A DNA stretch of 64,000 nucleotides from Capsulimonadaceae bacterium (lineage in GTDB: Bacteria; Armatimonadota; Armatimonadia; Armatimonadales; Capsulimonadaceae), in contig OZ244065.1 in assembly GCA_965215505.1 (NCBI GenBank), forward strand, positions 5,152,001 through 5,216,000, written 5' to 3'. Under the pieces are notes generated by a model. It was not told where the DNA came from. It saw nothing but the letters and a program-made list of their open reading frames with translations, and ran no database searches. A program made the position numbers and the translations under genes. Below are positions 11,499-36,573 of this stretch, piece after piece (within the stretch, counting starts at the first letter, position 1; each line of letters begins with the position of its first letter).

Positions 11499-11527
11499 GC
11501 GTCGCATCCGTGGCAAGGAGCAGCAGC

Positions 11528-12025: not shown

Positions 12026-12054
12026 GCACCTGGAGGCCACTGAGGGCCTCTAGC

Positions 12055-12603: not shown

Positions 12604-14612
12604 TATGACCTCGCCCCCACCGGCATCTTCTCCGTCATCATCTCCGGCATCTTTTCGGGCGCGCCTTTGCCGTTCCCATTGCCCTTCGACCGCGAGGCCG
12701 GGCGAGGCGGCATCTGCGTCAGCGCCCGGTGCGCGACCTCGTCCGCCGTCAGGCCCGCCCCGGCGCGCAGGGTGGGGATGGGGCCGTGTTCGATGAAGTG
12801 GTCGGGCAGGCCGACCAGCGAGACGGGGATCAGGACCGCATTTGCGGCCAGAAGCTCCAGGACGGCGGAGCCGAAGCCGCCGTGCGCGATGCCGTCCTCG
12901 ACCGTCACGACCGAACCGCAGCGGCGGGCGGCGGCGAGGATCGTCTCGGCGTCCAGAGGCTTGCAGAAGCGGGCGTTGAGGACGGTCGCATGCACCCCCT
13001 GGTCGGCCAGCTTGTCGGCGGCGTCCAGGGCGATCTTGACGCCCGCGCCCAGGGCGACGAGGGCCACGTCGCCCCCCTCGCGCAGTGTTTCGGCCCGGCC
13101 CAGCTCGATCTCGCTGGTCTTCCCCACGTCGGGCGGGAGCGGGTCCTGGCCGCCGCGCGGGTAGCGGACGGCGATGGGGCCAGCCTCGTAGGCCAGGGCG
13201 AAGCGGGTCATGGCGCGCATCTCGTCCGTGTCCTTGGGGGACAGGAGGACCAGGTTCGGGACGCAGCGCAGGTAGGCCAGGTCGAAGACTCCGTGGTGCG
13301 TTCCGCCGTCGTCGCCCACCAGCCCTGCCCTATCCAGGAAGAAGCGCACGGGGAGGTGCTGCAAGGCCACGTCGTGGATGATCGGATCGTAAGCCCGCTG
13401 CAAGAAGGTTGAATAGATCGCCGCCACGGGCTTCAGCCCTTCGGCGGCCAGGCCCGCCGCGAAGACGACCGCGTGCTGCTCGGCGATGCCGACATCAAAG
13501 AACCGCTCGGGGTGCAGCTTGGCGAACTTGTTCAGACCGGTCCCGTCCGGCATGGCCGCCGTGATGCCGATGATCTTGTCGTCGGTCTCGGCCAGGTCGT
13601 TCAGGGTCTCAACGAAGGCGTCGGTGAAGGAAACGCCCGGTGCCTTCGGCTCGGTCCGGCCGTCGTCCGGGCTGAACTTGCCTAGGCCGTGGTAGGTGCG
13701 CGAGTTCGCCTCGGCATAGGGAATGCCTTTGCCCTTGACGGTCAGGACATGCACCAGGACCGGGCCTTTAAGCCGCTTGACGTGCTTGAAGACGTTGATC
13801 AGGTTGTCCAGATTGTGGCCGTCGATCGGCCCGATATAAGTGAAGCCCATCTCCTCGAACAGCAGGCCCGTGTGGGCGGGCGTCGCGAAGTGGGTCGCCG
13901 TGTGCTTGGCGGCCTTGGCCGCCTTCTTTATAATCCGGCTGCCGACCGGCATCCCAGCGATCATCCGCTTGGCCGTGTTCTCCCCGGCTTGATACAGCGG
14001 CTCCATCCGCAGCTTGGCGAGGTAGGAGGCCAGCGCGCCGACGTTCTCCGCGATGGACATCTCGTTGTCGTTCAGCACGATGGTGATGTCGGTGCCGTCG
14101 TCGGCGGCATTGTTCAGACCTTCCAAAGCCATCCCGCCGGTCAGCGCGCCGTCGCCGATGAGGGCCAGGACGGAGTTCTTCGCCCCCCGGAAGTCGCGCG
14201 CCTTGGCGAAACCCATCGCCGCCGAGATGGACGTGGAGGCGTGGCCCGCGCCGAACAGGTCATACGGCGACTCGTCTATCCGCAGGAACCCGGACAGCCC
14301 GCCGTGCTGCCGGATCGTCGGCAACTGCTCGCGCCGGCCCGTCAATATCTTGTGAACGTACCCCTGATGCCCCACGTCCCAGATCAGCTTGTCTTTGGGG
14401 ATATCATAGACTTTGTGCAGGGCCAGCGTCAGCTCAACGACGCCCAACGAGGGCGCGAGGTGGCCGCCAGTCTTGGCTACGGTTTCGGTGAGGTAGACGC
14501 GGATCTCCTGCGCCAAGGCGCGCATCTCGTCCGGGGACAGGCGCTTGAGGTCGTCGGGGCTGTTGATGCCGTCGAGCAGGCGGCGTTCGGTCGGCGTGGC
14601 TTGGCTCTCCAT
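12603..14612 (-). CDS. dxs: 1-deoxy-D-xylulose-5-phosphate synthase
   Basis: GGHLAPSLG, WDVGHQ, GAGHASTS, GDGALTGG, NDNEMSI, DVGIAEQHA, DRAGLVG.DG; start reassigned to ATG 14612. Confidence 0.97.
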   Translation of the reverse strand: MESQATPTERRLLDGINSPDDLKRLSPDEMRALAQEIRVYLTETVAKTGGHLAPSLGVVELTLALHKVYDIPKDKLIWDVGHQGYVHKILTGRREQLPTIRQHGGLSGFLRIDESPYDLFGAGHASTSISAAMGFAKARDFRGAKNSVLALIGDGALTGGMALEGLNNAADDGTDITIVLNDNEMSIAENVGALASYLAKLRMEPLYQAGENTAKRMIAGMPVGSRIIKKAAKAAKHTATHFATPAHTGLLFEEMGFTYIGPIDGHNLDNLINVFKHVKRLKGPVLVHVLTVKGKGIPYAEANSRTYHGLGKFSPDDGRTEPKAPGVSFTDAFVETLNDLAETDDKIIGITAAMPDGTGLNKFAKLHPERFFDVGIAEQHAVVFAAGLAAEGLKPVAAIYSTFLQRAYDPIIHDVALQHLPVRFFLDRAGLVGDDGGTHHGVFDLAYLRCVPNLVLLSPKDTDEMRAMTRFALAYEAGPIAVRYPRGGQDPLPPDVGKTSEIELGRAETLREGGDVALVALGAGVKIALDAADKLADQGVHATVLNARFCKPLDAETILAAARRCGSVVTVEDGIAHGGFGSAVLELLAANAVLIPVSLVGLPDHFIEHGPIPTLRAGAGLTADEVAHRALTQMPPRPASRSKGNGNGKGAPEKMPEMMTEKMPVGARS

Positions 14613-16868: not shown

Positions 16869-16891
16869 GGCCGGCACTGGAAGTGCCGGCC
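16869..16891. terminator. Hairpin between convergent genes
   Basis: GGCCGGCAC-TGGAA-GTGCCGGCC. Confidence 0.4.
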
Positions 16892-16919: not shown

Positions 16920-18605
16920 TCACCGGCTCGCCGTGGCGCGCGCTGACGTGGCGGGCAGCAGGCCGTACACCTGAAGCTGGTTTGAGAAGGTGGAAACGTA
17001 AACGCGGCCGTTGATGACGGTCGGCGGGCAGAACTTGGCGAACATGCCGACGTCATCCCGGCCCGCATTCTGCTTGGAGTCCCAGAGCAGGTGCGAGAGG
17101 TCCGAGGCGTCGTAGGCGCGGACGATGCCCGGCACCGTCTCCCAGTTCGCGTTGGCGTCATACGGGGTGCAGGACCAGATAATGCCCGTGCCGGCCTTGC
17201 CGCCGTCGGCGGAGACGGACAGGAAGCCGCCCGGCATGCCGTCGGGCACGGCCACCTCGGACTGCGAGGCGGGCGTCTCGGTCAGCTTGCCGCCGGTCAG
17301 GTTCAGGGCCATCGCCTTCAGATGATCGAACTCGGGCCAGACGTAGACCATCGGGCCTTTAGGCCCGTTCCAGAAGACGGGGGCACCGTGGATGTTCCCC
17401 GGCGTCATCTGGAATGCCTGTGCGATCTGGCTGTCGTCGCCGGCGTGGAGGTGGCCTAGGGCGTCCCGGTGGGTCATGTACATCCAGCCGTTCTTGCCGC
17501 CGCCCAGGATCAGAGTCGTGCCCGGAACCAGGAGCGGGCCGGACGCGCCCAGGTCGGAGTCGTGGACGTTCAATTGGGCCTGGTTGTAGGGGGTGAAGTA
17601 GTCCACGACGGACAGCGTCCCCGGAACGGGACGCAGTTTCAGCATGCTGTTGCCGTAGTCATGCCCGCCCGAATCGGCGTCAAACGTCCCGTTCCCGGTC
17701 ATCGCATAGAGATTGCCCGCGCTGTCGGCGGCCATCCCCATGCCGGCCTGCCAGACCGAGCCTTCGGTCCCGTTGGGCGTGACGTTGAAGACGCAGACGC
17801 GGCTCAGTGTTTTGGCGTCGTAGCCCATGATCCACCCGTGGAAAGGCGGGTCGTCGGCGTGGGAGCCGAAACCGAGGTAGACCACGCCGCTTGCCAGCAA
17901 TAGGCCCGTCCGCTGCAAGTGCTTGACCGGGTCGAACGAGACGCGCCCGTTCACGCTGCCCTCGCCCGTGCCCGCCGCGTTGCCCTGGATGACGACGGGG
18001 CTGCCGGCCCGCTCCTGACCCGTCGTGATATCCAGCGCGTGCAGGCGGTGGACGTAGGTCCCGCCCTCCTTCGTCTTGGCCTCGACATAGATGGCTTTGT
18101 TGGTCAGGTCGATGACCGGCGTACTGGTAATCCCGATCTCCACCCGCATGTCGGTCCAGCGCGTCTTGTAGACCTCGGCGGCGGGAACGGACGGACCCAG
18201 GTTGATCTTCCACAGCGGGTCGGCGGCCTTCGGGTCGTCGGCGTCAAAGGCGTAGACGCTGTTGTGGGCGGTCGCCAGGAAGACGACGTTGTGGACCCCC
18301 TTGCCGGGGATGGGCAGCCGGGGCACATAGAGCGGCTGCGCGTACAGGTAGCCGTCCACGTCCCGCGTCCACAGCTTGCCGAAGGTCTTGACGTTGACGT
18401 TCGACGTGTTCAGGACCGTCTCACGCAGGTTCGCCCCCGTCCGCTGGTTGTCGTTATGCTGCGTCAGCATGGACACCGGCGGTTTCGCTGCGGCATAGGG
18501 AATCGGGGGCGGCCCGGACGGGGCTGCCCCCGCCCCGCCGCTTGCGGGGAGGCCCAAGGCCGCCGCTATCGCCATGTTACGCCACAAAGACAGACTATGT
18601 CCCAC
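16920..18605 (-). CDS. Secreted PQQ-binding-like beta-propeller protein
   Basis: Signal peptide; LTQHNDNQRTGAN..ET.L...NVN...FGKL...VDG..YAQPLY, GITSTPVID, D.DLGASG, KF.PPTV.NG.VYV; start may be 18575. Confidence 0.75.
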   Translation of the reverse strand: MGHSLSLWRNMAIAAALGLPASGGAGAAPSGPPPIPYAAAKPPVSMLTQHNDNQRTGANLRETVLNTSNVNVKTFGKLWTRDVDGYLYAQPLYVPRLPIPGKGVHNVVFLATAHNSVYAFDADDPKAADPLWKINLGPSVPAAEVYKTRWTDMRVEIGITSTPVIDLTNKAIYVEAKTKEGGTYVHRLHALDITTGQERAGSPVVIQGNAAGTGEGSVNGRVSFDPVKHLQRTGLLLASGVVYLGFGSHADDPPFHGWIMGYDAKTLSRVCVFNVTPNGTEGSVWQAGMGMAADSAGNLYAMTGNGTFDADSGGHDYGNSMLKLRPVPGTLSVVDYFTPYNQAQLNVHDSDLGASGPLLVPGTTLILGGGKNGWMYMTHRDALGHLHAGDDSQIAQAFQMTPGNIHGAPVFWNGPKGPMVYVWPEFDHLKAMALNLTGGKLTETPASQSEVAVPDGMPGGFLSVSADGGKAGTGIIWSCTPYDANANWETVPGIVRAYDASDLSHLLWDSKQNAGRDDVGMFAKFCPPTVINGRVYVSTFSNQLQVYGLLPATSARATASR

Positions 18606-18661: not shown

Positions 18662-21600
18662 TCACACCTCCGCCAGTATGTCCTTGCGCCGCGCGTCGTA
18701 CTCCTCGCGCGTGATCAAGTCCTCGTCCAGCAGCTCCTTCAGCGAAGCCAGCCGCTCCTTGAGCGTCTTGGCAGGCGGCGCGGTGGCCGTCGCCGTCTGG
18801 CCGTTTCCATTCCCGCCGCCGATGATCGCGGGCGGCTGGGCCACCGTTTGCAGCGCAGGCCCGGTCGCCATCGTCACCGTCGCCGGGGCGGACGACGTTC
18901 CGGCGTAGTTGATCTCTTCCAAATAGTCGGTCAGCACCTTGTAGTAGGCGTTGTAGAAGCCCGGCGTCCAGGCCGTCTTCTGCCGGTTCGCGTGGGCCAC
19001 CAGCCGGTCGCCCAGGCCCCGCGCGCCCTCCGCCCGCAGCCGCTCGTCAATCGCCGCCGCGATCTGCGCCTCCATCCGGCGGTCATCGCAGAGCCGCTGA
19101 ATGATGTCGCGGGCCTCCAGCGGGGGGCGGTCCGCGCTGCCCGTCTCGGCTTTGAAGCCCGCGATGGGCGTCTCGACCGTGTTGAAGCCGCCCAGGGCGT
19201 CCGACTTGGGCATCCCGAACTTGTCCACATAGCTCGCGACGAAGCGGATCTCGGTCCGCGTCCCGACGCTGGTATACCGCGACTCCTGTTCCTCAGAGAT
19301 CACCGCCGAGGCCCAGCCGACGACGAACGTCCGCCACGCCTCCCGCTGGTCCTCAAACGAGGGCGGCGCGATCCGCACCCAGTCCTTGACGTCCGTGCGG
19401 GTGTGGATCGGGTTCGCCGCCGCGCCCTGCGCCTTCACCTGGTCGTAGGCATAGCGGTAGGAATCCATACCCTGCAAGAGACGCAGCGGAAACGCCGCCC
19501 GCTCCTGCAAGAACAAGACCTGATCCGACTCGTTGGAGTTGGTGATCTGCTGGTCCTTGACGTTCTGGACGCTCTCCGTCAGCATGGACTGGAACCGCTG
19601 CTCGCTTTCGGAGCGCGGGGCCGCGCCGTGCAGGATGCCGACGATGGTCTGCTCCTTGTTCATGTTGTGCGTGTAGTTCGGCGCGTTCTCCTGCAAATGC
19701 AGGAACGGCTGCGAGAGCGACACGACGCGCCGCAAAGTCTGGGTCGTCCGGTCGGTGTCCAGGCCATACTTGGCATAGAACTTGTCCAGTACGCTCTCCT
19801 CGGCGACCGGCTTGAAGACCGCCTGCGCGTGTTCCAGGATGACCTGGCTCAGGCGCAGCAGCTCGTTGTCCTTGACCCCCCATACGTCGTTGCGCGTGCC
19901 TAGGGTCTCCAAGATGTCCGCCGTCAGGTTGTTGACGGCCGGGTTGTTCGGGTCCTGCGCGTTCCCCACATAGAAGCTATATCGGTCGTCAATGTCCCCG
20001 CCAACATACCGATCTATGCCCGTATTCGGGTCCGTCTCACGCCGACCGGGGTTGAACAGCACTTCGCCGTTCACATCCACCGGCTCCTGAACCGCATGGC
20101 GCTCGGCCTTTTCAAACCGGGACCGCAGCGACTCCATCCGCTCGACGTAGCGGTCCATCTCGGCCCGCAGCCCGGCTACCGTCTCGATCAGGCGGCTGTA
20201 GAAGGCGATGGCCGCCCCCGCCGCCTTGCGGTCCAGGGCCTCGGCGTCCAGCCGCCGCTGGGCGGCGATGTAGCCGTCCTTTGCCTCGTCTATCTCGCGC
20301 CGCTTGGCCGTCGCGATCAGGCCGAGCATGAAGTCGCCCGCGTGGCTGTTGATGCGCTGGAGCGAGTCGTCGCGCTGCTTGGTCAGCGGGAACGACCCGC
20401 CCAGCAGCTCATCCCCCTGCTTCTCCATCTGGGTGATGTAGCCCCGGAACCTTTCGGTCATCGTGTCCAGGGCCGCCGCCGCAACCGTGTGCCGGTGGTT
20501 CGGGTCATTGACGCGGGCGGAAACCCAGTCGCGCAGGGCCTTGTCTTTGGCACGGATCGTCGCGCCGAGGTTCTGCTGGATCTGGAAGACCGACTCGCCC
20601 AGGTTCGCCCGCCGCTTCGCCATCAGGTCCGGGTTCGGGTCCGTGTCGGCCATCCGCGCCTCGGCCTCTTTCTGACGCGCCAGCAGGTACTCCACGACCC
20701 GCCCGTGTCCGGGATAGGCCGTCAAGTATTGCCGGTCCACGGCCTGCCAGTAGGCCATCGCGCCGTCGCGCAGCGTCTCGCCCGTCTCGGAGTTGCCCAG
20801 CAAGACCTGACGCTGGACCGCCTCGGGCGTCAGACCCAGCCGCCCCAGCTCCTGGTCGGTGAAGGCCCCCAGATTGACCGTCCGCTCCAGCGGCGTCGTC
20901 CAGCGGCGGACGATGTCGCCCGCCAGCCGGTTCGAGCAGGCCGCCATGACCTTGTCCTTGGGGAACTGGATCGCCGACAGCCCGAAGCCCATGTAGTTCT
21001 GCGGGCAGCCCAATCCGTCCGTCGTGATGAGGAACTGGTCAAAGTTATTCCGGTTGGACTTCTTCTGACGCTGGAATTCGGAGGTCAGGTCCAGGAAGAT
21101 CGAATGCCCGATCATCTCCACTAGGTCTTTGACCGAGTCCAATTGGGCGGCAGGCGACGACGTATCCGCTAGGTAGGTGTACCGGAACGGCGGGTCGGCG
21201 CTCTCCATAACCGGGATGTCCGCCTGATACTGCGCCGTGAACGTCGTCGTCGCGTCCGTATAATGGTTTAGCTCCAAGAGCGCCGCGTAGGCGTTGGGCC
21301 GGTTGTCCACGGCCACCGCCTCGGAGTTCGGCGGGATGGAGAACATGCCGACCGTTTCCAGCATCCTCTGCGTCTTGAACTTGTTGCGGACGGTGTAGGC
21401 CAGGTCCAAGAACATCCCCGAGCCGGTCCCGCCGAGCAGGGACCCGACGATGTAGACCGTGATGCCCTCGCCGACCTGCAAGCCGTTCCGAATCGCCGTC
21501 TCTTTGCTGGAGTCCTTGGTGATCTGGAGCATCTGCTCTTCCAGCCGCCGCGCGATCTGGTTGTAGTTCCAGAAGTAGGCCAGCCGCCCGCGCGCCCGGA

Positions 21601-22030
21601 CCGCGCCCGCGCCCTGGTCAATGTCGCCGGTCAGGACGCGCGGGTCCAGCCACGTCCGCAGGTGGGGATGCTCGCGCAGGTTCTTCCGCAGCGAATCCAC
21701 GCCATGCACGGAGGTGTGTATCTTGTCCGCGTTGTCTAAATTAACCGCGTCGTCATAGTCCGGGTTCTTGGCGAAGATCACCTGGTCGGTGTCCAGCAGC
21801 AAAAACGAGACGATGGGCAGCTTGTCCAGCGACCCGTACTTCTCGGTCAGCCGCTTGCGGACATCCAAAAGAATCTGGTGCCCCGTCCCGCCGACCCCGA
21901 CGATGAGCGACCGCGAGACCCCCCGCAGCCGCCCGTCCTCCGCCTGCGGCCCCGCCGTGGAGGCCGGTGCAGCGGGCGTGTTGATCGCGTTCACGATCGC
22001 ATCTGTGATAGGTTGTGTGTTATCTGCCAT
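18662..22030 (-). CDS. Tubulin/FtsZ-like GTPase (Tubulin_2/FtsZl1-type) with long helical region and C-terminal SHOCT domain
   Basis: LIVGVGGTG, GAGAVRARGR, GSLLGGTGSG, PNAYAALLEL; coiled coils; C-term LKERLASLKELLDEDLITREEYDARRKDIL. Confidence 0.88.
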   Translation of the reverse strand: MADNTQPITDAIVNAINTPAAPASTAGPQAEDGRLRGVSRSLIVGVGGTGHQILLDVRKRLTEKYGSLDKLPIVSFLLLDTDQVIFAKNPDYDDAVNLDNADKIHTSVHGVDSLRKNLREHPHLRTWLDPRVLTGDIDQGAGAVRARGRLAYFWNYNQIARRLEEQMLQITKDSSKETAIRNGLQVGEGITVYIVGSLLGGTGSGMFLDLAYTVRNKFKTQRMLETVGMFSIPPNSEAVAVDNRPNAYAALLELNHYTDATTTFTAQYQADIPVMESADPPFRYTYLADTSSPAAQLDSVKDLVEMIGHSIFLDLTSEFQRQKKSNRNNFDQFLITTDGLGCPQNYMGFGLSAIQFPKDKVMAACSNRLAGDIVRRWTTPLERTVNLGAFTDQELGRLGLTPEAVQRQVLLGNSETGETLRDGAMAYWQAVDRQYLTAYPGHGRVVEYLLARQKEAEARMADTDPNPDLMAKRRANLGESVFQIQQNLGATIRAKDKALRDWVSARVNDPNHRHTVAAAALDTMTERFRGYITQMEKQGDELLGGSFPLTKQRDDSLQRINSHAGDFMLGLIATAKRREIDEAKDGYIAAQRRLDAEALDRKAAGAAIAFYSRLIETVAGLRAEMDRYVERMESLRSRFEKAERHAVQEPVDVNGEVLFNPGRRETDPNTGIDRYVGGDIDDRYSFYVGNAQDPNNPAVNNLTADILETLGTRNDVWGVKDNELLRLSQVILEHAQAVFKPVAEESVLDKFYAKYGLDTDRTTQTLRRVVSLSQPFLHLQENAPNYTHNMNKEQTIVGILHGAAPRSESEQRFQSMLTESVQNVKDQQITNSNESDQVLFLQERAAFPLRLLQGMDSYRYAYDQVKAQGAAANPIHTRTDVKDWVRIAPPSFEDQREAWRTFVVGWASAVISEEQESRYTSVGTRTEIRFVASYVDKFGMPKSDALGGFNTVETPIAGFKAETGSADRPPLEARDIIQRLCDDRRMEAQIAAAIDERLRAEGARGLGDRLVAHANRQKTAWTPGFYNAYYKVLTDYLEEINYAGTSSAPATVTMATGPALQTVAQPPAIIGGGNGNGQTATATAPPAKTLKERLASLKELLDEDLITREEYDARRKDILAEV

Positions 22031-22075
22031 GTGTGTTGTTTACAGGAAACATAGTTCGGTGCTTATGCACCGGGT

Positions 22076-23146
22076 TCATCTCGGCGTCCAGCGCCGTTCT
22101 TCTCTTGCTTTCTCCGCTGCTCTGTTCGAGTAATTACCGACAATTTGGCGCAGCGTCTCATTCTGAGTACGCCATTTCGTCTGCCCGGCGTTCACGGCGT
22201 AAAGGGGGATGATCCGCCGCAGGCGCTCGATGTCGGTCAACGTCGCCACGAAATCCCACTCGCCCCCTGCGGTTACGATAACTGAGCGGAGGCCCTTCTG
22301 GTACAGATCGGTGATCTGATCCCAGGCTATCAGCACACGCTCAGGCCCATTGATGAATGTCAGCCCCTCGGCGTCCACTCGAATCTTCTGCTTTAGCCGC
22401 CGGTGTGTCTCCTGATACGTTGAACGGATCAAGAGCGGCAGGACCTGCTTGCCCACAAAGAACAGTCCCGTTGGGGTCAGCAGCCAGCCCCAGCCGGGCA
22501 GCGTGTGCGTCGTTTCCCAGCGCCACCCGAAGTAGACGACAGCCGCCGCCAGACCGATCTGGTGCCACTGACGCAGCCACGGCAGCGTGTGACGGTTCAG
22601 GATCGTGTCGTAGTGGAACACCAGGGGCCAGTCCGAGGGGCGCTCACCCCGGACGCCCCACGCGCCGCCCCAATAGGCTGGCTTTGCCGCCACCGCGCGC
22701 TGCCGGATAAAAGCCCGCAGTTTGGCCTCGTTCGACCAGCGGCCCGTCCCCATTCGGAGTTGCCCGGCCTGCGTCTCGACATAGCTCCCTTCACTGGCTC
22801 GGTTTCCGTTGGGCGACGGAAGGCGGTCATAATAATCACGGACACCTTCCCAGGGTGTAGACCGCCAGCGCCAGCCGTACCGCCAGCGGAGTCCTGCCTC
22901 GTCCGCGATAATATCTGCCCGCAAGCGGATCAAAAGAATCCCAGACATGAGCAGCAAGAAAAGGCCACTGTGCAGCGCAAACGGGGAGAACGCCGTAAGG
23001 GTGTTAGCACCGGGAGGGACCAAGAAGGACGACAGGCACAGCACACCGCTCAGCAAAAATGAAATCCAGAGGCCCGGCCTTGCCCCAGACCATTCGCACC
23101 GTACCTCGGTTTCACCCGCCCCTGGATTATATGGGGAGATGTCCAT
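22076..23146 (-). CDS. Membrane protein with two (2TM + bacterial PH-like) repeats
   Basis: IIADEAGLRWR...PWEGVRDY and IRVDAEGLTF...IAWDQITDL each follow TM pairs; RBS GAAGG; lower GC than neighbours. Confidence 0.65.
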   Translation of the reverse strand: MDISPYNPGAGETEVRCEWSGARPGLWISFLLSGVLCLSSFLVPPGANTLTAFSPFALHSGLFLLLMSGILLIRLRADIIADEAGLRWRYGWRWRSTPWEGVRDYYDRLPSPNGNRASEGSYVETQAGQLRMGTGRWSNEAKLRAFIRQRAVAAKPAYWGGAWGVRGERPSDWPLVFHYDTILNRHTLPWLRQWHQIGLAAAVVYFGWRWETTHTLPGWGWLLTPTGLFFVGKQVLPLLIRSTYQETHRRLKQKIRVDAEGLTFINGPERVLIAWDQITDLYQKGLRSVIVTAGGEWDFVATLTDIERLRRIIPLYAVNAGQTKWRTQNETLRQIVGNYSNRAAEKAREERRWTPR

Positions 23147-23167
23147 AAATCACCCTTCGATAGTGTT

Positions 23168-23452
23168 TTATCTGTCCCGAAGCGTAAGCATGAAACCCAG
23201 CGCAAACAGCCCGACGATCCCCATCTGTGCCAATAAGATGGTCACATCCACCGGCGCGGGGACGCTCCCCGTCAGGCCGGAGGCCAGCGCCATCAGGCCC
23301 GGCGCATCCTTACTGACCAGGTCCGGCGGCGACAGCAGGGACCGGTACAAGACCGGGTGACTCGTCCCCTGTGTCAGATACGGCGGAAACAGCAGCATCA
23401 GTGCCGCGATAATGATGGCGGCCCACAAGACCGCCAACTGCCTCCCGTTCAT
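23168..23452 (-). CDS. Small two-TM membrane protein (94 aa)
   Basis: C-terminal part of ORF 23168..24316 from MNGRQLAVLW; ATGA overlap with upstream stop; LFPP after TM1. Confidence 0.65.
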   Translation of the reverse strand: MNGRQLAVLWAAIIIAALMLLFPPYLTQGTSHPVLYRSLLSPPDLVSKDAPGLMALASGLTGSVPAPVDVTILLAQMGIVGLFALGFMLTLRDR

Positions 23453-24345
23453 GCCGCCCCTCCCCCGACCCGGCGACGCAGCGTTTGTTCCTCGATCCCT
23501 TCCGCCTGCGCCGGCACGTCCCCGCCAACCGTGGGCCGGCTCAGGATCGTGTCCACCTCGGCCCGCGCGACCGTCACGGCGTTCGCCTCCAGTGCGACCC
23601 GGTGGATGCTGGCGGCCAGCCCGGAGAGTTCTGGTACGGACTGACGCCCGCCCACCTGGAGCGCGGTGAGGCTGGTCTGGAGGGCGCGGACCTGCTCCCC
23701 GACCTCCTCCCGCAAGGCGCCGTTGCGGCGCAGCAGGAGCAGCGTCCGGGCGGTGGTGTCCGAGCGCCGCAGCAGCGACTCGGCGCGGCGTCGCAGGCTG
23801 GCCGCGATGACCGAGTCGGTCTCGGATTGTGCCCGGAGCGCCTGCATCTCGGCCTCGGCCCGCAATGCCGCCGGGTCGTCCGTCATGACCTTCTGCTCGG
23901 GCGGCAGCGCCTCCACCGCCGTTCCCAGGGCCGTGATCGCTTCCCGGACCTCCCTGTCCGCCGTCTCGTCCTTCGTCGCCGGCAGGCTCACGACGGAACA
24001 GGCCAGTTCGAGGTAGCTCTTGACCAGCGCGTCCTGCGCCCGCTGCCGAACGCATTGCAGCTCGTAGGCCGAAACCGGTTTCTGCCCGCCTTCGTCTGTG
24101 CCGCGCGCCCGCAGTGTAAGGAGCCCGTACCAGGCGAAGCAGAGGACGGCGATGATTGCCGGCGTGGCGGCGATCGCCGGGACTTGTATCGCCTCGAAAA
24201 AGCCTGCGACGGCGAGGCAGCCAAGCCCCCACTTGCCCACGGCGCTGGGCTTTGCGCTCTCCTCGGGCTGAAGGGACGCCTGGGAACGCTCCTGCTGTAT
24301 CTCCCGGTCGATCCACTCCCCCAGATTACGCGGGTAAAGGTCCAT
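23449..24345 (-). CDS. Two-TM coiled-coil protein, paralogue B
   Basis: Start MDLYP; shares YLEL, REAI.ALG.A.E.LPP, E.D.V.AASL.RR.E.L, LLRRN.ALREE...Q..AL.TSL, PEL.G.AA.I.RVA.EANAVT.AR.EVDT.LSR with the upstream gene. Confidence 0.8.
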   Translation of the reverse strand: MDLYPRNLGEWIDREIQQERSQASLQPEESAKPSAVGKWGLGCLAVAGFFEAIQVPAIAATPAIIAVLCFAWYGLLTLRARGTDEGGQKPVSAYELQCVRQRAQDALVKSYLELACSVVSLPATKDETADREVREAITALGTAVEALPPEQKVMTDDPAALRAEAEMQALRAQSETDSVIAASLRRRAESLLRRSDTTARTLLLLRRNGALREEVGEQVRALQTSLTALQVGGRQSVPELSGLAASIHRVALEANAVTVARAEVDTILSRPTVGGDVPAQAEGIEEQTLRRRVGGGAA

Positions 24346-24346
24346 G

Positions 24347-25360
24347 TCAGAGCGCATCCCCGTTCAGACCTAGCCGCCGCTGCCGCACTTCTTCCTCCGC
24401 CGCCGGAACGCCCGCGCGGGTCCGGCTCAACAGCGTATCCACCTCGACGCGAGCGGCGGTGACGGCGTTGGCCTCGGAAGCAACGCGGCGGATGCGGGCG
24501 GCGACGCCCGCGAGTTCCGGCCCGCTGTCGTCCCCGTCCAATCCGGCGGCGGCGAGACTCGTCCGCAGTGCGCCGATCTGGTCCGCCAGTTCCTCGCGAA
24601 GTGCCAGGTTGCGCCGCAGGAGGAACCGGACGCGCGCGACCGTTTCGGCCTGCCCCCGCAGGGCCTCGACGCGGCGGCCCAGGCTGGCCGCCACCACGGG
24701 GTCACTCTCCCCCGTCGCCTCCGAGGCCAGGCGGTCGGCGGCGGCTTGCAGCTTAACGTGGCTGTCCGGGACCCCCTCCAGCGTTTGAGGCGGCAGGGAC
24801 TCGATGGCCCCGCCCAGGGCGCGGATCGCCTCCCGCGCGCTCCGCGCGCTGTCCTCCCGGCTCGTCGCCAGCGGGGCGAGGTGCATCGCCGCCCAGACCA
24901 GTTCCAGGTACATCCCCAGCAGCGGGTCGTCCCCGCCTTGCCGCAGCAGGGCGTTCTGGAGCTGCGTGACTTCCGGCTCGGTCAGGCGCGCGTAGGGGCT
25001 GGCCTGCGGTTCGGCAAAGCCGCGCTGCACGGTCGGTATCGCGCGCGTCCATCCGCTCCGCTTCTGCCGCACTATGGCCGCCACGATTAAGCAGAAGAAG
25101 AGCGCCATCAAGAAGGAGCAGTGGAATACGATCTGCGTCGCCCAGGCTGCGAAGACGCTGCCGATGAGGTAGAACCAGGCGGTGGTTGCCCTCTGCTTCA
25201 GCGTCTCGACGCGGCCCGAGGGGGATATGGACGGGCCTGACGCCCACTCAGCCCCGCCTTTGTCGGCGCGCGACTGCCGGTGTTCCAGCACCTGCCGGCA
25301 GTGACGCGGCCCCAAATCCTCCGGGTAGATGTCCACGGCGCACCCTTCCCACAGCGACAT
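24347..25360 (-). CDS. Two-TM coiled-coil protein, paralogue A
   Basis: TGATG overlap at 25360 (alternative GTG 25336, VDIYP); clear paralogy with 23449-24345. Confidence 0.78.
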   Translation of the reverse strand: MSLWEGCAVDIYPEDLGPRHCRQVLEHRQSRADKGGAEWASGPSISPSGRVETLKQRATTAWFYLIGSVFAAWATQIVFHCSFLMALFFCLIVAAIVRQKRSGWTRAIPTVQRGFAEPQASPYARLTEPEVTQLQNALLRQGGDDPLLGMYLELVWAAMHLAPLATSREDSARSAREAIRALGGAIESLPPQTLEGVPDSHVKLQAAADRLASEATGESDPVVAASLGRRVEALRGQAETVARVRFLLRRNLALREELADQIGALRTSLAAAGLDGDDSGPELAGVAARIRRVASEANAVTAARVEVDTLLSRTRAGVPAAEEEVRQRRLGLNGDAL

Positions 25361-26052
25361 CACACCGCCCGGCGGCGGCTGAACAGGCCGACGAGGACGG
25401 CCAGGACCAGGACGCCGCCCAGGGCCACACTCAGCCAGCGCACATAGTCCGCGCTGTTGAGCAGCAGGACGCACAGGACCAGGCCGACATAGGCGACCAG
25501 CCCGATCAGCAGGGCGACCCGCGCCGCTGCCGCCGCGTCGCCGCGCTGGTTCAGGCCGCGCGTCGCCGTGTAGGAGACGAACGGCAGCAGCAGCAGGCAG
25601 ATGAGCAGGCCGACGCCCAGCACGATGTAGCGCGTGACCGGGCTTGCGACGACGAACTGGAAGTCGTTCTCCGGCGTGGCGGGGAAACGGACGCCGCCGA
25701 TGTCTCCGGCCTGCGCCTCGAAATGGTAGCGGTACTCGCCGCTCTCCGTCGGCGAGTAGGGCCAGGTGGCCGCGACGCCCGTCGCCGGGTCGCCCGCCGA
25801 CGCCTTGCCCGGCACGGTGACCGTCTCGCCGTTCGGGGTCAGCACGACCATGGACAGCTTCGTCGGCGGGTCGCCGGTGTATTTCAGGGAGAGCGCCATC
25901 AGCTCATTGAGTTTTACCTCGGTCGGCAGGGAATGGGAGTCGTTCAGCTCCAGCTTCGGCGGGGCGGCGATGGCCCCGGCGGCGAGGAGGCAGAGCAGGC
26001 TGAGGGCCAGGATGATTCGGGTGAAAACGGTTTGACGGAAGACGGGTTTCAA
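25360..26052 (-). CDS. Signal peptide + Ig-like beta domain + three-TM membrane protein
   Basis: RBS GAGGAGG, TTG start; GEYRYHFEA strand; three C-terminal TM helices. Confidence 0.75.
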   Translation of the reverse strand: MKPVFRQTVFTRIILALSLLCLLAAGAIAAPPKLELNDSHSLPTEVKLNELMALSLKYTGDPPTKLSMVVLTPNGETVTVPGKASAGDPATGVAATWPYSPTESGEYRYHFEAQAGDIGGVRFPATPENDFQFVVASPVTRYIVLGVGLLICLLLLPFVSYTATRGLNQRGDAAAAARVALLIGLVAYVGLVLCVLLLNSADYVRWLSVALGGVLVLAVLVGLFSRRRAV

Positions 26053-26224
26053 GGGCGCGTGGCCTCCTCGGCGGGGCAGGTTAGAGACGACACCACGGCA
26101 TTCAGGCGGTGCCCCTTGTCTCTACGGATGCTTCCCGATTATTGTGACACATAACGTGAAAAAAGGTTGCAACGGTTCGCGGGGGCGCAAGCGACCGGCA
26201 TTGGAAATGCCGGTTCCCTTCGGT

Positions 26225-27418
26225 CTAGAACACCCGCCCGTGCGGGTCTTCCACGCGGATGCGGTGTTCGCGCTCACCTTCCGACGTGCTGGCCGGGACG
26301 GCAACCCGCAGATCGTCGCCGACGCGCAGGGGGGCGGGCTGTTTCAGGGCGACGCCATTGTGGAAGAGGGCAGGGGAGGGAACGCCCTCGCTCGGGGGGG
26401 CGGGCGTCAGCGTCGCGCCGCCGCGCTCAGCCTGGATGAAGGCGACGGGGGCGGCGACCCCGGCGAGCGGGAATGTGTCCGCGCTGCCCGACGCCATGCC
26501 GGCCGACCCGCCCAGGGCAAGCCGTGTGCCGGGCAGGAGGCGGAAGTCGCGCGGCAGGCCTCGGTCGCCGAGCTTCAGCCGCAGGGGATACGGCTTGCGG
26601 CGCGTCAGGAACCAGAAGAGCAGGCCGAGCAGCAGGGCGGCGAGGGCCGCGCCGAGGATCAGCGGCAGGAGCGAACCGCGCCCGCCCATGCCGGTGGGGG
26701 CGAGGATGGTGGGCGTCTCGGTCGTCGCGGTCGCGTCGGTGTCGCCCTGTCCCGGCCCGACCGGGAGGCGCTCGATGGGTCGGCCGTCGGGCGCGATGCC
26801 GACCCCGACCCCGTACTGATGCAGGCAGCCCTTCGCCGTCAGGGTCCGCAGCAGGCGCTCATAATCGCGGTTCTCGGGCGTCTTCGGGTAGACGGTCAGG
26901 CCCTTGAGCGTGTAGTAGGCCAGATACTTAGGGTAGTTCGGGTCGGCGAGGTCCGGCCGGTCGTTGAACGAGTCGGTCAGCAGAACGACCACGGCGGGGC
27001 AGGCGTCCTCGCGGGAGATCAGCTTCAAAGCCTCGTGGTGCGGCAGGCGGATGTTGGTGCCGTGGCCGGGCGCGGGTGCGGGCGGGATCTGGTCGATCAG
27101 CGGGTCCACGTCGGCGGCGGACGTCAGGGTTTTGTCGAAGACGGTCTTGTACCCCGTCCCGAAGGGGAGGAGGATGACGCGGTCGCCGACCGAACAGCCC
27201 TGGCGGAGCAGCGTGGCCGTGGCCGCGCGCTCCTCAGTGAAGACGCCGCCGTGCCGTGTGCTTTCGGTCACGTCGAAAACGAAGATGACGGTTTTGGCCT
27301 TCAGCGGCTTGATCCGCGCGGCGATGGCCGCCGGGGAGAGAGGTGCCGTGGCGTCCTGGGCGAGCGCCGGGACGAGCAGGCAGAAGAAGAGGGCAAGAGC
27401 GGGGAGAGATGGTTTCAT
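26225..27418 (-). CDS. Exported vWA domain + TM + cytoplasmic FHA-like domain protein
   Basis: Signal peptide; VIFVFDVTES (MIDAS-like), GTNI, VVLLTD; TM LILGAALAALLLGLLFWF; C-term LFHNGV.L..P.PLRVGD. Confidence 0.8.
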   Translation of the reverse strand: MKPSLPALALFFCLLVPALAQDATAPLSPAAIAARIKPLKAKTVIFVFDVTESTRHGGVFTEERAATATLLRQGCSVGDRVILLPFGTGYKTVFDKTLTSAADVDPLIDQIPPAPAPGHGTNIRLPHHEALKLISREDACPAVVVLLTDSFNDRPDLADPNYPKYLAYYTLKGLTVYPKTPENRDYERLLRTLTAKGCLHQYGVGVGIAPDGRPIERLPVGPGQGDTDATATTETPTILAPTGMGGRGSLLPLILGAALAALLLGLLFWFLTRRKPYPLRLKLGDRGLPRDFRLLPGTRLALGGSAGMASGSADTFPLAGVAAPVAFIQAERGGATLTPAPPSEGVPSPALFHNGVALKQPAPLRVGDDLRVAVPASTSEGEREHRIRVEDPHGRVF

Positions 27419-27453
27419 GGGGCCTCAGAAGTCGGCGTCAGTGGTGTGCGGCG

Positions 27454-29073
27454 TCAGCGGAGTGTCAGCAGCCACGCGCCGAGCAGGCCCAGCGAGGAGG
27501 CCAAGGCCAGCACGGCGGGGATGCAGCCAACCTTGCCGACGCCGCCCGGCAGGGCGTCCCCGCCCGCGCGCACGACGCGGACGCGGACTTCGCAGGTCAT
27601 GTCGCGCCAGACGGGCTTGGGGCCGAGCAAAGTCTCCGTCAGGATGCTGGTCGTGAAGGTCACCTCGGCCCGGTAGTCGCCCCCAGCCAGGCCCACGGCG
27701 TCCACGGCGAAGCCGAGATACTGCGTCTCGCCCGGCTCGATCCAGACCGCGCGCAGGTCGCCGGGGTAGGTCAGCCACTTGGGGCGCGTGTGCAGCCGGT
27801 CCACCCGCAGCCGCGTTGGCCCGATGTTGCGGACGCCCAGGTGCAGGACGCCGTGCTGGCCGTAGCGCACCAGGCCGGGGTCCGGCTCCTGGACGCAGGC
27901 GATGCCGGGGTGGTCGCCGTTCGCCGGCTGGCCCGCCGGTGCCGGCGTCGGCGGCGGGTGGTGCAGGTTCTCCGCCAGCGGGACCGTGCCCGACGCCTCC
28001 TCCGGGTTGATGCCCCGGACCAGGACGGGGACCGCCACCGTCTGCTCCGGCCAGGCCGCGCCGGGCGGCGGCGCGGCGGCCAGCAGGCCGTCGTTCGAGC
28101 GCACCGTCAGGGTCGCCTGGTACGCGCCCGGCTCCAGACGCGCCCCGGACAAGGTCCAGATCAGGTCGCCACCCGTGCCCGGCGCGAGGTCCACCGGGTT
28201 GAAGCGGTTCGGCAGGTTCAGCCAGACCACGTCCGAGGCCACCGATTCGACGTGCAGCGGCGCGTCCCCCTCGTTGTCCAGGGCCAGCGTCACGGTCGTG
28301 CCGCCGCCGGGGGCCAGGGTCGCCGTGGGCGGGGAGAGGCCGCAGACCAGGCGCGCGCCCAGGCGCGTCCGCACCGCGCTGTCTGCCTCCATGTCGGCCG
28401 CGTCGAAGCCCAGCAGGGCGGCCATGCGGGCGATGGCGTCCAGCTTGTACCGCAGCTCCTCGGCGGACTGTGTCGTCTGCTGCATCTCGGTCAGGTTCCG
28501 CAGCAGGCGCGTCCGCGCCTCAGTCCCCGCCTCGTCGTCGGCGGGCCTGGCGGGCAGGAACTCTTTATAAAGCTGGCACAGGCCGACGAAGTCCGCGCGG
28601 GTCGGCGTCCCGTCCGGTCCGGCAAGACCCGGCGCGCGGGCGAAGTCGGAGAGCAGGGCGATGTCCGGGAACCGGCCGTCCACCAGGACGTTTTCCGCCG
28701 TCACCGCCCCGTGCGCCAGCCCCGCGCCGTGGGCATAGTCCAGGGCGTCCAGGAGGGGCAGCAGTCGGGCGTGGAGCCGGTCGAAGGCGCGCAGGGCGAG
28801 GTCGGACAGGGCCAGCCGCAGGTTGCAGCCGCTCACCCAGTCCCGGATGACATAGAAGCCGTCCCCGTCGCGCAGCCAGCGCCGCGTCGGGACGATCCGG
28901 GGGTGACGCAGGGCCAGCGCCTGCGTCGCCCGCGTCTTCGCCTCGTCGCCGGGCAGCCGCTTGATCAGGACGCGCCGCCCCCCCTCCGGCTCCCGCGCCG
29001 TCCAGGCGGCTGCGCCGGACGCGGAGGGGGGGAGGGAAAGCACCTCTTCAAACTGTGACAGGACACGGTCCAT
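27454..29073 (-). CDS. Ser/Thr kinase-like (probable pseudokinase) + two BACON/Ig-like domains + C-terminal TM
   Basis: VLIKRL, LRHPRIV, ALDYAH..GLAHGAVTAENVLV, LSDFA; repeats L.N.G...L.V......WL and L..G.Y.A.(L/V)T; hydrophobic C-terminus after GC. Confidence 0.78.
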   Translation of the reverse strand: MDRVLSQFEEVLSLPPSASGAAAWTAREPEGGRRVLIKRLPGDEAKTRATQALALRHPRIVPTRRWLRDGDGFYVIRDWVSGCNLRLALSDLALRAFDRLHARLLPLLDALDYAHGAGLAHGAVTAENVLVDGRFPDIALLSDFARAPGLAGPDGTPTRADFVGLCQLYKEFLPARPADDEAGTEARTRLLRNLTEMQQTTQSAEELRYKLDAIARMAALLGFDAADMEADSAVRTRLGARLVCGLSPPTATLAPGGGTTVTLALDNEGDAPLHVESVASDVVWLNLPNRFNPVDLAPGTGGDLIWTLSGARLEPGAYQATLTVRSNDGLLAAAPPPGAAWPEQTVAVPVLVRGINPEEASGTVPLAENLHHPPPTPAPAGQPANGDHPGIACVQEPDPGLVRYGQHGVLHLGVRNIGPTRLRVDRLHTRPKWLTYPGDLRAVWIEPGETQYLGFAVDAVGLAGGDYRAEVTFTTSILTETLLGPKPVWRDMTCEVRVRVVRAGGDALPGGVGKVGCIPAVLALASSLGLLGAWLLTLR

Positions 29074-31709: not shown

Positions 31710-33251
31710 ATGTCCACACCACTCACCATCGCCCTCGTCCCTCTGGACGAGCGTCCCGTCAACACGCGCTACCCGCAAATGCTCGGGGCCATCGGCGGCG
31801 CGAACGTCCTGCTGCCGCCGCCCGGAATCCGTGGATTGCAGCGCGCCCCTGCTGACCTGGAGGCCGTTGCCGATTGGCTCCAACAGGCAGCGGCGACGGC
31901 AGACGCGGCCATCGTTTCCGCCGACTACCTCGGTTTCGGCAACCTCATCAATGCCCGCATCTCCCAGGACAGCGCCGCCCGTGTCCTCGCCCGCCTGGAC
32001 CTGCTGGCGACGCTCAACCCGACCTGCCCCGTCCACGCCTTCTCCCTCATCACCCGCGTCTCGAATGCCGACGACGCCGTCGAGGAGCCGGAATATTGGA
32101 CGCAGTGGGGGACGAAGTTTTACCGCTACGCCCGGCTGGCGCATCAGGCCGAGCGCGAAGAACTGGAAGACGCGGACGAGCTGGCGCGGCTCGACGAGAT
32201 GCTGCCGCCCGACCTCAAAGCGGACTGGCTGACGCGCCGCCTGCGGAACCACACGGTCAACCTGGGCCTGCTGGACATGGCCGGGCGCGGGCAGATCACG
32301 TCCCTGCGCCTGACCTCCGACGACACCAGCCCCCTCGGCTTCCCTTCGCGCGAGCGGGACTGGCTGCGCGGCTGGCCCCGGCTGATCGGCCCCGCCCTTG
32401 CCGACCGCGTGATGATGCATCCTGGCGCGGACGAGGTCGGCTCCGCCCTGCTGTCCAAGCTGCTCCTGGAGCGGGCCGGCGGGACGCCGCGCGTCGGCAT
32501 CCTCTACAGCCACCCCGGCGATGATACCCTCGTCGCCCCCTATGAAGACCGCCCCGTGCGCGAGACGGTGGAGGGTCAGATCCGCGCCTGCGGGTGTGAA
32601 GTCGCCGATACGACCGATGGCTGCGACTTCCTCCTCGGCGTCGCCACCCCCTCGCCCCGCCGCACCGACTTCCGCCCGGAGTACGAGGCCGAAGACCGGT
32701 TGCAGCGAACGCCTGTCTATCACGCCTTCCTTGCCCAACTGGCCGCGTGGCAGGAACGCGGCGTCCCCGTCGCCCTCGCCGATGTCGCCTACCCCAACGG
32801 CTCCGACTCGCTCCTGACCGCCCTGCTGCTGGCCCCCGACGCGCCGCTCGCGCCGAGCCGCCTAGCCGCCTACGGTGCCTGGAACACAGCAGGCAACACG
32901 TTAGGCGTCGTCGTCGCCCAGGCCGCCTGCTCCCTCCTGATGGGAGACGACCCCGCCCGCGCCCAGGCCCAGCGCATCTTCCTGGCCCATCGCTTCCTGG
33001 AAGACTGGGGCTACCAGACCGTCACCCGCCGCGAGGCCCGCGCCGAGTCCGAACGCCTGTGGAACCGCCGCGACCCCGACCCGGACGACCCCGCGCACCA
33101 ATCCGCCCTCAGCGCCTTCATCGAAAGCCGCCTCGCCGCCCGCCTCCTCGACCTCCAGGCGCGCGGCATCGGCACGGGCCTGCGCCTGACGCCGGAAAGC
33201 ACCCGCCTCCCCTGGCGACGGACATTCGAGGTGGATTTTCGGCTGGAATGA
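31710..33251 (+). CDS. DUF4127 family protein
   Basis: VPLDERPVN, DDT...G....E, PGADEVG, PYEDRP, ADVAYPNG.D, YGAWNTAGNTLG, EDWGYQ, LPW.RTFEV. Confidence 0.85.
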   Translation: MSTPLTIALVPLDERPVNTRYPQMLGAIGGANVLLPPPGIRGLQRAPADLEAVADWLQQAAATADAAIVSADYLGFGNLINARISQDSAARVLARLDLLATLNPTCPVHAFSLITRVSNADDAVEEPEYWTQWGTKFYRYARLAHQAEREELEDADELARLDEMLPPDLKADWLTRRLRNHTVNLGLLDMAGRGQITSLRLTSDDTSPLGFPSRERDWLRGWPRLIGPALADRVMMHPGADEVGSALLSKLLLERAGGTPRVGILYSHPGDDTLVAPYEDRPVRETVEGQIRACGCEVADTTDGCDFLLGVATPSPRRTDFRPEYEAEDRLQRTPVYHAFLAQLAAWQERGVPVALADVAYPNGSDSLLTALLLAPDAPLAPSRLAAYGAWNTAGNTLGVVVAQAACSLLMGDDPARAQAQRIFLAHRFLEDWGYQTVTRREARAESERLWNRRDPDPDDPAHQSALSAFIESRLAARLLDLQARGIGTGLRLTPESTRLPWRRTFEVDFRLE

Positions 33252-33252
33252 C

Positions 33253-33292
33253 AAAAACGGCTGGCCCTCGCGTTTGCGAGGGTCAGCCATTT
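33253..33292. terminator. Probable bidirectional intrinsic terminator
   Basis: AAAAAC-GGCTGGCCCTCGC-GTTT-GCGAGGGTCAGCC-ATTT. Confidence 0.7.
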
Positions 33293-33355
33293 CAGAATGG
33301 ACGGTTATAGGTAATCGGACGGCACATGCTGGGGGCGGTGATTAAATTCCTAGAG

Positions 33356-35149: not shown

Positions 35150-35155
35150 TTTGCT

Positions 35156-36501: not shown

Positions 36502-36573
<72 letters not shown>

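Follow-up and report, generated by a model that had tools for sequence, protein, structure and literature searches.

A tubulin-like FtsZl1/vWA gene cluster in an order of Armatimonadota: a lineage-specific variant with a co-conserved core and a variable cassette

Bacterial gene clusters in which a giant tubulin-like protein (FtsZl1, Pfam family Tubulin_2) is accompanied by a protein with a von Willebrand factor A (vWA) domain were described by Makarova and Koonin (2010; PMC2875224). Here we analyse such a cluster from a Capsulimonadaceae bacterium of the phylum Armatimonadota, a run of eight genes that we call G1 to G8 (Table 1), located in a stretch of 64,000 nucleotides (hereafter 'the window'; assembly GCA_965215505.1, contig OZ244065.1, positions 5,152,001 to 5,216,000). 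G8 encodes the tubulin-like protein, G1 a predicted pseudokinase and G2 the vWA protein. The locus is a lineage-specific variant of the known, experimentally untested FtsZl1/vWA clusters; an earlier sequence-only reading of the window had suggested that it may be an undescribed envelope-remodelling or conflict system. The interpretation that we favour, at a probability of roughly one half with its proposed mechanism included, is that these genes form a membrane-bound, vertically inherited FtsZl1 module of an Armatimonadota order, which would span the envelope and operate without a DO-GTPase/GAP1 partner.

As far as the available text of the 2010 paper (PMC2875224) goes, the described clusters and the present locus have in common a giant Tubulin_2 protein with a helical region after its GTPase domain, an adjacent vWA gene with an intact metal-ion-dependent adhesion site (MIDAS), a kinase-type gene, many membrane-associated partners, coexistence with canonical FtsZ, and vertical inheritance within the lineage. 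On the other hand, the present locus has neither the diverged P-loop GTPase nor the OmpA-like gene of those clusters, its kinase is a conserved pseudokinase, and its vWA protein bears a degenerate FHA-like tail. G3, the family of helical proteins with two transmembrane (TM) segments (2TM), and a protein with Ig, zinc-ribbon and propeller parts are not among the families listed there, as judged from the one-line descriptions that the list provides. Lastly, T6-H7 and the C-terminal domain were not identifiable in FtsZl1 in the 2010 sequence analysis, as reported in the same text, whereas our structural model indicates a near-complete tubulin fold, which bears on that doubt.

Tubulin-plus-vWA neighbourhoods also appear, in the available part of Kaur, Burroughs, Iyer and Aravind (2020; PMC7159879), among the GAP1-N2 GTPase conflict systems. 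As outlined there, such systems likewise combine a tubulin homologue that continues into C-terminal helical regions with a vWA protein of the membrane, whose vWA domain is extracellular, and with variable TM-rich components; their action is proposed to take place close to the membrane. They were, however, described for Firmicutes and Actinobacteria, whereas the core discussed here is conserved across an order, mostly with one match per genome, and their defining DO-GTPase/GAP1 pair was not found in the complete genome of our bacterium: DO-GTPase2, GAP1-N2 and GAP1-M (PF19993, PF20013 and PF20014) gave 0 matches, while the Corynebacterium glutamicum control was positive. These profile searches exclude the GAP1/DO-GTPase form for the locus and bear out the earlier remark that no companion GTPase or GAP1 gene was to be seen; PF19975 (DO-GTPase1) matched no control genome and its result is uninformative. 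No family of the FNIII type, another component of GAP1-N2 systems, appeared in Pfam scans of the operon, which included no search aimed at FNIII.

A further point of comparison comes from an outgroup genome (G041), whose FtsZl1 operon (locus L083, 5941-16032) encodes an Hsp70-vWA fusion, a second Hsp70-family protein and an ASH/HYDIN Ig protein, the last of these above its Pfam cut-offs. It resembles our locus in its Tubulin_2 protein with a SHOCT or SHOCT-like tail, in the vWA gene directly upstream and in the cytoplasmic ASH/HYDIN-type Ig protein, but its two Hsp70-family genes have no counterpart in the window; their place is taken in our operon by the pseudokinase, G3 and the helical cassette. 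A more distant analogy is offered by FtsZ with its membrane tethers FtsA, ZipA and SepF. By that analogy G8 would combine a globular tubulin-fold core, a disordered linker (residues 1046-1087) and a short conserved C-terminal element, with membrane proteins encoded beside it. G8 is nevertheless not FtsZ, and no homology of its partners to FtsA, ZipA or SepF was found or is claimed.

The tubulin-like protein and its signalling partners

G8 is the single Tubulin_2 gene of the host genome, and its product matches this family (PF13809) with 236.7 bits (E = 5.9e-70; residues 42-374; cut-off 27 bits). SHOCT (PF09851) is recognized at its extreme C-terminus with 23.1 bits, below the cut-off of 27 bits, and in outgroup orthologues of G8 with 48.1 and 43.8 bits. 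In 34 homologues the nucleotide-binding loops T1, with the motif GGTG (G47, G48, T49, G50), and T4, with GGTGSG (G200, G201, T202, S204, G205), are invariant, as are the GAGA-type T3 and D314 in the motif FLD-LTSE-F. The latter (FLD314-LTSE318-F) sits between two predicted helices of the AlphaFold (AF2) model and is our candidate for the T7 catalytic loop.

The AF2 model of G8, built on the 34-sequence alignment and reaching a predicted local distance difference test score (pLDDT) of 84.1, comprises a disordered N-terminus (1-35), an alpha/beta GTPase region (38 to about 400), three very long helices (479-648), a second alpha/beta region (655-950), further helices (971-1039), the disordered linker and a two-helix, SHOCT-like tail (1090-1121). 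At E <= 1e-3, Foldseek gave at least 484 PDB matches to this model, with CetZ (6.1e-6), gamma- and beta-tubulin, TubZ and FtsZ at the top; TM-scores to solved tubulins were moderate (0.32-0.50 normalised to target). VIA alignments of the model with tubulin chains had Z of 20.9-22.2 and root-mean-square deviations of 3.6-5.8 A, with 323-360 of 379-439 residues aligned, and extended from residue 38 to about residue 890 of the model and from residue 1 to residues 417-441 of the chains. From these ranges and aligned lengths, rather than from a residue-by-residue comparison, we infer that the whole tubulin fold is present in near-complete form, and that it appears to be split by an insertion of about 250 residues, the long helices.

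The same features can be turned to another account of G8, to our minds a decidedly unlikely one, in which it does not polymerise and is instead a large, scaffolded GTP switch, regulated by its nucleotide state, through which the receptor complex in the membrane would be coupled to an output in the cytoplasm. Makarova and Koonin (2010; PMC2875224), in the text available, found no T6-H7 in FtsZl1 and left non-filament forms open; in the model, the helical interruption of the tubulin fold, together with the further domains, might block longitudinal contacts, and the moderate TM-scores are also consistent with such a switch. However, the VIA alignments take in nearly entire tubulin chains (Z about 21-22), a conserved acidic motif occurs where T7 is expected, and all characterised members of the superfamily form filaments, according to the part of the same authors' reply to reviewers that is available (PMC2875224).

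Homologues of G8 of about 1100 amino acids, with 25-29% identity over 77-97% of the length, are found in Cyanobacteria and Eremiobacterota. Among G8-related proteins of other lineages the tail after the linker varies, being SHOCT, PF14237 (which we take to be GYF_2) or zinc ribbons, and the C-terminal domain looks like an exchangeable docking element. For SHOCT itself, a role as a membrane-proximal anchor has been predicted (PMC11237479), while an experiment gave no support to a role in oligomerisation (PMC3581485), in so far as the available text of these two papers covers the point. Canonical FtsZ is encoded separately in the host genome, for which reason G8 was rejected as the division FtsZ, and is present in 31 of the 31 phylum genomes sampled. 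In two relatives the tubulin-like gene lies in pieces, broken by stop codons or frame changes (L065 of genome G015, 10001-12831; L053, 1178-4491); these may be pseudogenes or assembly errors, genome G015 being 76% complete.

The kinase part of G1 is recognized by Pfam Pkinase over its N-lobe only (20.6 bits, E = 3.3e-4; cut-off 31.7 bits), and PADLOC matched it there with kinase-domain models alone (MkoA, PD-T4-6 and mad6, up to 6.2e-11). In all 16 orthologues aligned (alignment A1) the 'HRD' motif reads HG[AG], so that the catalytic Asp is missing, and there is no Gly-rich loop; beta-3 Lys38, catalytic-loop Asn128 and DFG-type Asp143 are kept. This pattern of motifs marks G1 as a conserved pseudokinase, which may have retained nucleotide binding. 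Behind the kinase part, weak HYDIN/ASH-type matches denote two Ig-like domains in the host family and one in its sister family, and hydropathy places a TM segment at 520-538, in a C-terminal tail that is optional among relatives. A conserved Gly-Cys dipeptide stands just before the hydrophobic tail of tailed orthologues (27454-27560 in the window); dipeptide and tail resemble C-terminal sorting signals, yet G1 has no signal peptide.

In G2, Pfam VWA_2 scores 30.5 bits (cut-off 27 bits) and the MIDAS is intact, with D49, S53, T121 and D149 invariant and position 51 either S or T in 17 sequences. The protein has a signal-peptide-like N-terminus, a TM segment at 250-268 (hydropathy) and a cytoplasmic tail of 123 amino acids. 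When this tail (alignment A3) was compared by hhalign with an FHA alignment from related genomes, the match had a probability of 91.9% (E = 6.8e-7), against at most 1.4% for 20 column-shuffled control alignments. Weaker signs are a Pfam FHA match in one of the 17 members at E 0.05 and a language-model look-up (Atlas), a lead only, with an FHA/Yop-YscD_cpl feature score of 0.85; PDB chains searched with the profile of the tail yielded no FHA. When the hhalign alignment is extended, the phosphothreonine-binding GR falls on G29-G30, SxxH falls on A-P-V-A and the Ser/Asn loop is missing: the tail is FHA-like in fold but stripped of its phosphothreonine-binding residues. One relative (L035, 11293-12245) carries an insert of about 950 bp between its vWA gene and its pseudokinase gene, with an ORF (open reading frame) of 213 amino acids that is absent from the close relative L037.

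Both phospho-signalling parts, the kinase of G1 and the FHA-like tail of G2, are thus degenerate, and uniformly so in the order's orthologues examined, much as the sequence-only reading had surmised when it called them inactive-looking. Its assignment of the locus to FtsZl1/Tubulin_2 clusters with vWA, FHA-like and kinase-like parts was likewise sound. Among the Pfam models that it had named for checking, Tubulin_2 and VWA_2 exceed their cut-offs, whereas SHOCT does not and FHA is confined to the single marginal match given above.

The co-conserved core and the variable cassette

Conservation was assessed in 41 genomes of the order, from two families and 11 genera. G8 has a match in all 41 (53-97% identity), G2 and G1 each in 40 (the miss in each case being a 75%-complete genome), and a protein with Ig, zinc-ribbon and PQQ-like beta-propeller parts in all 41; most genomes have a single match to these core genes. 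The propeller protein lacks a signal peptide and is taken to be cytoplasmic; its gene lies about 1 Mb from the operon in the host genome, beside that of the pseudokinase in family f2, the sister family, and beside the vWA gene in outgroup genome G051. G3 directly follows the vWA gene in every examined locus that has both, and most genomes have the pseudokinase gene next to the vWA gene. Within a phylum sample of 151 genomes, which are related so that counts are not independent, a Tubulin_2-type match occurs in 56 and exceeds 900 residues in 17, and the G2 profile matches exactly these 17. vWA-G3-Tub or vWA-Tub adjacency persists in outgroups, with vWA beside Tub in three outgroup genomes, and one outgroup has propeller-vWA-G3 in a row. 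One genome of the host's family (G089, 96% complete) gave no match to any of G8, G2, G3 and the helical family, and its kinase and propeller matches were generic only. G8, G2, G3, G1 and the propeller gene are a co-conserved core, and this core is vertically inherited in the order. Because its conservation is order-wide, vertical and mostly single-match, its genes are occasionally dispersed over three loci and its neighbours are housekeeping genes, we regard it as a core cellular module rather than as mobile defence.

The dispersal is seen in genera g3 and g4, where the set is split into propeller-pseudokinase, vWA-G3-helical paralogues and a lone tubulin-like gene. Taken at face value, these three unlinked sub-clusters would fit the view that there is not one system at all: the vWA-G3 pair and the tubulin-like gene, or fewer, would cooperate, and the pseudokinase, the helical proteins, G6, G7 and a ninth gene after G8 would be mere neighbours. 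The variable presence of the cassette genes, the synteny of the ninth gene in one genus only and the solitary helical and G7-like paralogues elsewhere in the host genome agree with this. We nonetheless think it very unlikely, since overlapping start and stop codons join G3, G4, G5 and G6, the pseudokinase and vWA genes keep together as noted, nearly every genus of the order, those with split clusters included, has helical paralogues either after vWA-G3 or ahead of the tubulin-like gene, and genome G089 yielded matches to none of G8, G2, G3 and the helical family.

The interval between G3 and G8 is of a different nature. Among species of one genus it holds one helical gene, two, G7 only, G7 and a helical gene, CC-G7-G6-CC, or nothing. 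Over the loci compared, the number of helical paralogues per locus ranges from 0 to 4. Within the genus, G3 falls into two deeply diverged types of about 40% identity. The window's type is a clade (Shimodaira-Hasegawa-like approximate likelihood ratio test, SH-aLRT, 100) whose members are scattered over the G8 tree, and approximately unbiased (AU) tests reject concordance of G3 and G8 both ways (p about 1.7e-5), for groups that were named after the trees had been seen. One pair of genomes illustrates the contrast: G8 is 97.2% identical, the pseudokinase 93.5% and the vWA protein 88.9%, whereas G3 is only 44.8% identical and the cassette CC-G7-G6-CC is present in one genome and absent from the other. 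In this pair, DNA similarity ends 9 nt before the start codon of G8 and resumes inside the signal-peptide part of G3; to judge from these breakpoints, the segment from mature G3 to the start of G8 has therefore been exchanged as a block, evidently by recombination between close relatives. Such swapping would point to selection on the outward-facing or adaptor parts.

A lack of co-conservation had been named beforehand as one finding that would refute the system proposed for this locus. For the core this refutation fails, as G8, G2, G1 and G3 are co-conserved. The eight genes are nevertheless not a unit: G6, G7 and the helical paralogues are present in some species of a genus and missing from others, and the conserved set includes the propeller gene, which lies elsewhere in the host genome.

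The exchange also lends substance to an alternative that we consider possible though on balance doubtful, namely a chromosomally fixed conflict or recognition system, in which the vWA and G3 ectodomains would sense an invader or a neighbouring cell, the cassette would set specificity and the tubulin-like GTPase would be the effector, changing the membrane or stopping growth. Besides the block replacement between genomes with nearly identical G8, the scatter of G3 types over the G8 tree (AU p 1.7e-5) and the fluctuating number of helical paralogues, this idea draws on the GYF-type or zinc-ribbon tails that replace SHOCT in G8 homologues elsewhere, and on the position of tubulin-plus-vWA neighbourhoods among GAP1-N2 conflict systems in the available part of Kaur et al. 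(2020; PMC7159879). In contrast, the core is present in 40-41 of 41 order genomes, mostly as one match per genome and with 53-97% identity, it is spread over three loci in some genera, and its flanks are housekeeping; no DO-GTPase/GAP1 pair, recognisable effector enzyme or PADLOC family was found; and the AU groups were, as stated, named after the trees were seen. For these reasons the conflict system entertained in the sequence-only reading is not favoured, although the recombining cassette leaves a conflict or recognition role some room.

Turning to the exchanged proteins themselves, G3 has a conserved loop motif, ARSxNKRGDPSxAAR (hydropathy and alignment A6), and tandem repeats of giant ORFs in other Armatimonadota are matched by its ectodomain as well. 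G4 and G5 are paralogous, with 38% identity over 331 columns (tblastn; alignment A5), and their family has a conserved N-terminal peptide (M-x-[IL]-x-P-x-D-L-G), a TM hairpin and a helical cytoplasmic domain. An AF2 model of G5 (pLDDT 85.1; predicted TM-score, pTM, 0.72) is all-helical; it matched nothing in the PDB at E <= 1e-3 with Foldseek, its best Z in a wide VIA comparison was 8.2, to generic helices, and the profile of the helical family found nothing below E 0.19 among PDB chains. A likeness of G5 to ESCRT-III/Snf7 (Z 7.2-7.6) was set aside as within noise for helical models, and so was an Rv2743c/PspM lead (Atlas 0.89, 40% of members), which had no Pfam support. The 64 homologues of G5 have no Pfam domain, and those with names are called 'hypothetical protein'. 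The helical 2TM family has four copies in the host genome, two of them solitary; the solitary copies and a G7-like gene with three units are located well away from the operon (C1:4098604-4103048, L089; C1:5377429-5378439, L090). G6 was seen in few related loci (L035, L041 and L065). G7 is matched by Pfam bPH_6 with 18.7 bits (E = 0.0018; cut-off 22 bits), has two 2TM-PH units as against three in most relatives (alignment A7), and stands beside the tubulin-like gene solely in loci of family f1.

Gene order and neighbouring features

The eight co-directional ORFs are real, all lying on the minus strand between 29073 and 18662. The host genome is a single contig of 6.18 Mb, and the G+C content of the window (66%) generates many spurious overlapping ORFs, from which real genes were told apart by family matches and by conservation in relatives. 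Much of the architecture put forward from the sequence was borne out: a Kyte-Doolittle scan found hydrophobic segments in each of G1 to G7 but not in G8, as expected for seven membrane-bound products out of eight; junctions do overlap, G3/G4 by 4 nt (GTGA), G5/G6 by 4 nt (ATGA) and G4/G5 by 11 nt, the remaining ones having gaps of 21-172 nt; and the paralogous 2TM pair and the two-unit design of G7 are as proposed. Some details changed, however. The start of G6 was corrected to 23452 and that of G4 is most likely 25363, not 25474, and, while the duplication of the 2TM proteins stands, their 'coiled coils' are the long helices of a confident all-helical model.

Table 1. Features of the FtsZl1/vWA locus, in window coordinates
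Feature	Coordinates	Strand	Description
G1	27454..29073	-	Predicted cytoplasmic pseudokinase with two Ig-like (HYDIN/ASH-type, weak) domains and C-terminal TM tail
G2	26225..27418	-	Signal peptide, extracytoplasmic vWA with intact MIDAS, TM helix, cytoplasmic FHA-like tail
G3	25360..26052	-	Signal peptide, beta-rich ectodomain of about 110 amino acids, three TM helices, conserved loop motif
G4	24347..25363	-	Helical 2TM protein, paralogue of G5
G5	23449..24357	-	Helical 2TM protein, paralogue of G4
G6	23168..23452	-	94-amino-acid protein with two hydrophobic segments
G7	22076..23146	-	Two (2TM + bacterial-PH-like) units
G8	18662..22030	-	1122-amino-acid FtsZl1/Tubulin_2 protein, predicted GTPase
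Ninth gene	16920..18605	-	561-amino-acid protein with hydrophobic N-terminus, no family match
Terminator-like hairpin	16869..16891	-	10 pairs, 8 of them G-C; 3' of the ninth gene; from consensus scan

The ninth gene starts 56 nt past G8 on the same strand and is syntenic in loci of genus g1 only. It has two paralogues elsewhere in the host genome (36-38% identity), its protein has no Pfam or PDB sequence match, and it was rejected as a counterpart of the f2 propeller gene, to which it shows no similarity. The hairpin behind it (16891-16869) is the sole strong terminator-like site in a consensus scan of the window, but gives just a hint of termination, since the scan found 5 sites against 6.6 expected by chance, overall not above chance. 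Gene and hairpin together probably end the operon; a promoter scan returned 0 sites. G2 to G8 matched 0 defence families in PADLOC (PADLOC-DB 2.0) and have no NCBIfam family, and G3, G4, G5 and G6 have no Pfam family above cut-off.

The flanking genes are of a housekeeping kind (Dxs, a TPR protein, sugar-nucleotide enzymes, RpiA, NanE, ROK and DUF4127), and a defence-island context was not seen. Elsewhere in the window, positions 34001-36000 have a G+C content of 0.48, against about 0.66 in the remainder, and from 33251 to 36641 no gene passed the coding filter; this stretch may be foreign or non-coding DNA. Two genes of the Uma2 family (putative restriction-endonuclease-like) lie near polysaccharide genes on the minus strand (5930-6589 and 8135-8734).

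A possible role at the cell envelope

How might a trans-envelope FtsZl1 module of this kind work? Reasoning from topology, conservation and analogy, we suggest that G2, with its intact MIDAS, and the ectodomain of G3 would bind a ligand on the outer side of the cytoplasmic membrane. The G2 tail with its FHA-like fold, the conserved cytoplasmic loop of G3 and the scaffold of pseudokinase and Ig domains would then act as fixed docking parts rather than as phospho-switches, and would keep G8 at the cytoplasmic face of the membrane or nucleate it there. At this site G8 would assemble in a GTP-dependent manner, polymerising and hydrolysing GTP, while being tethered through its flexible linker and SHOCT-like tail and, additionally, through the exchangeable 2TM helical (G4, G5) and 2TM-PH (G7) adaptors. 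The module might thereby organise or remodel the envelope locally.

Several observations weigh against this interpretation. The G8 sequence profile, searched against PDB chains, matched neither tubulin nor FtsZ, an hhalign comparison of the N-terminus of G8 with an FtsZ alignment gave a probability of at most 3%, and the motif FLD314-LTSE318-F falls on the T7 loop of FtsZ solely in an alternative hhalign alignment of 1.3% probability. The helical family had no match in the genus-mates G006 and G013 in a genome profile search, and G7 was seen in family f1 only, so that the proposed helical and G7 tethers are dispensable or replaceable. Cassette recombination and the two deep types of G3 fit recognition or conflict at least as well as they fit a housekeeping role. 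As for expression, contigs of relatives about 90% alike in one metatranscriptome cover G8 and the G1/G2 junction; these prove neither transcription nor an operon, and the parts left uncovered carry no meaning. A literature search found no functional study of FtsZl1/Tubulin_2 (PF13809) since the 2010 description.

The fixed and the exchanged parts could also be brought together in a single, more speculative picture, which we hold to be unlikely as it stands. Here a polymer of the tubulin superfamily would be the cytoplasmic arm of a core trans-envelope recognition machine, whose vertically inherited, fixed parts (the vWA receptor, dead FHA, dead kinase, propeller and tubulin-like GTPase) would be joined by an exchanged allelic cassette, the G3 ectodomain with the 2TM adaptors, that sets the target, be it phage, kin or surface. 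If true, FtsZl1 would thereby gain its first function, and polymorphic recognition loci a tubulin-based counterpart.

Returning to the favoured module, its interest lies in that no branch of the tubulin/FtsZ superfamily is more diverged than FtsZl1, which has had no experimental function since its description in 2010. The present locus may offer an entry point: there is one copy per genome, the partners (vWA receptor, G3, pseudokinase and propeller) are defined by co-conservation, and the tubulin fold of G8, to judge from the model, is near-complete and includes a candidate catalytic motif. Ready-made controls are at hand in natural variants without the adaptor cassette or with a swapped one. 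The locus would also represent a case in which a kinase/FHA pair has been kept, as apparently dead scaffolds, across an order.

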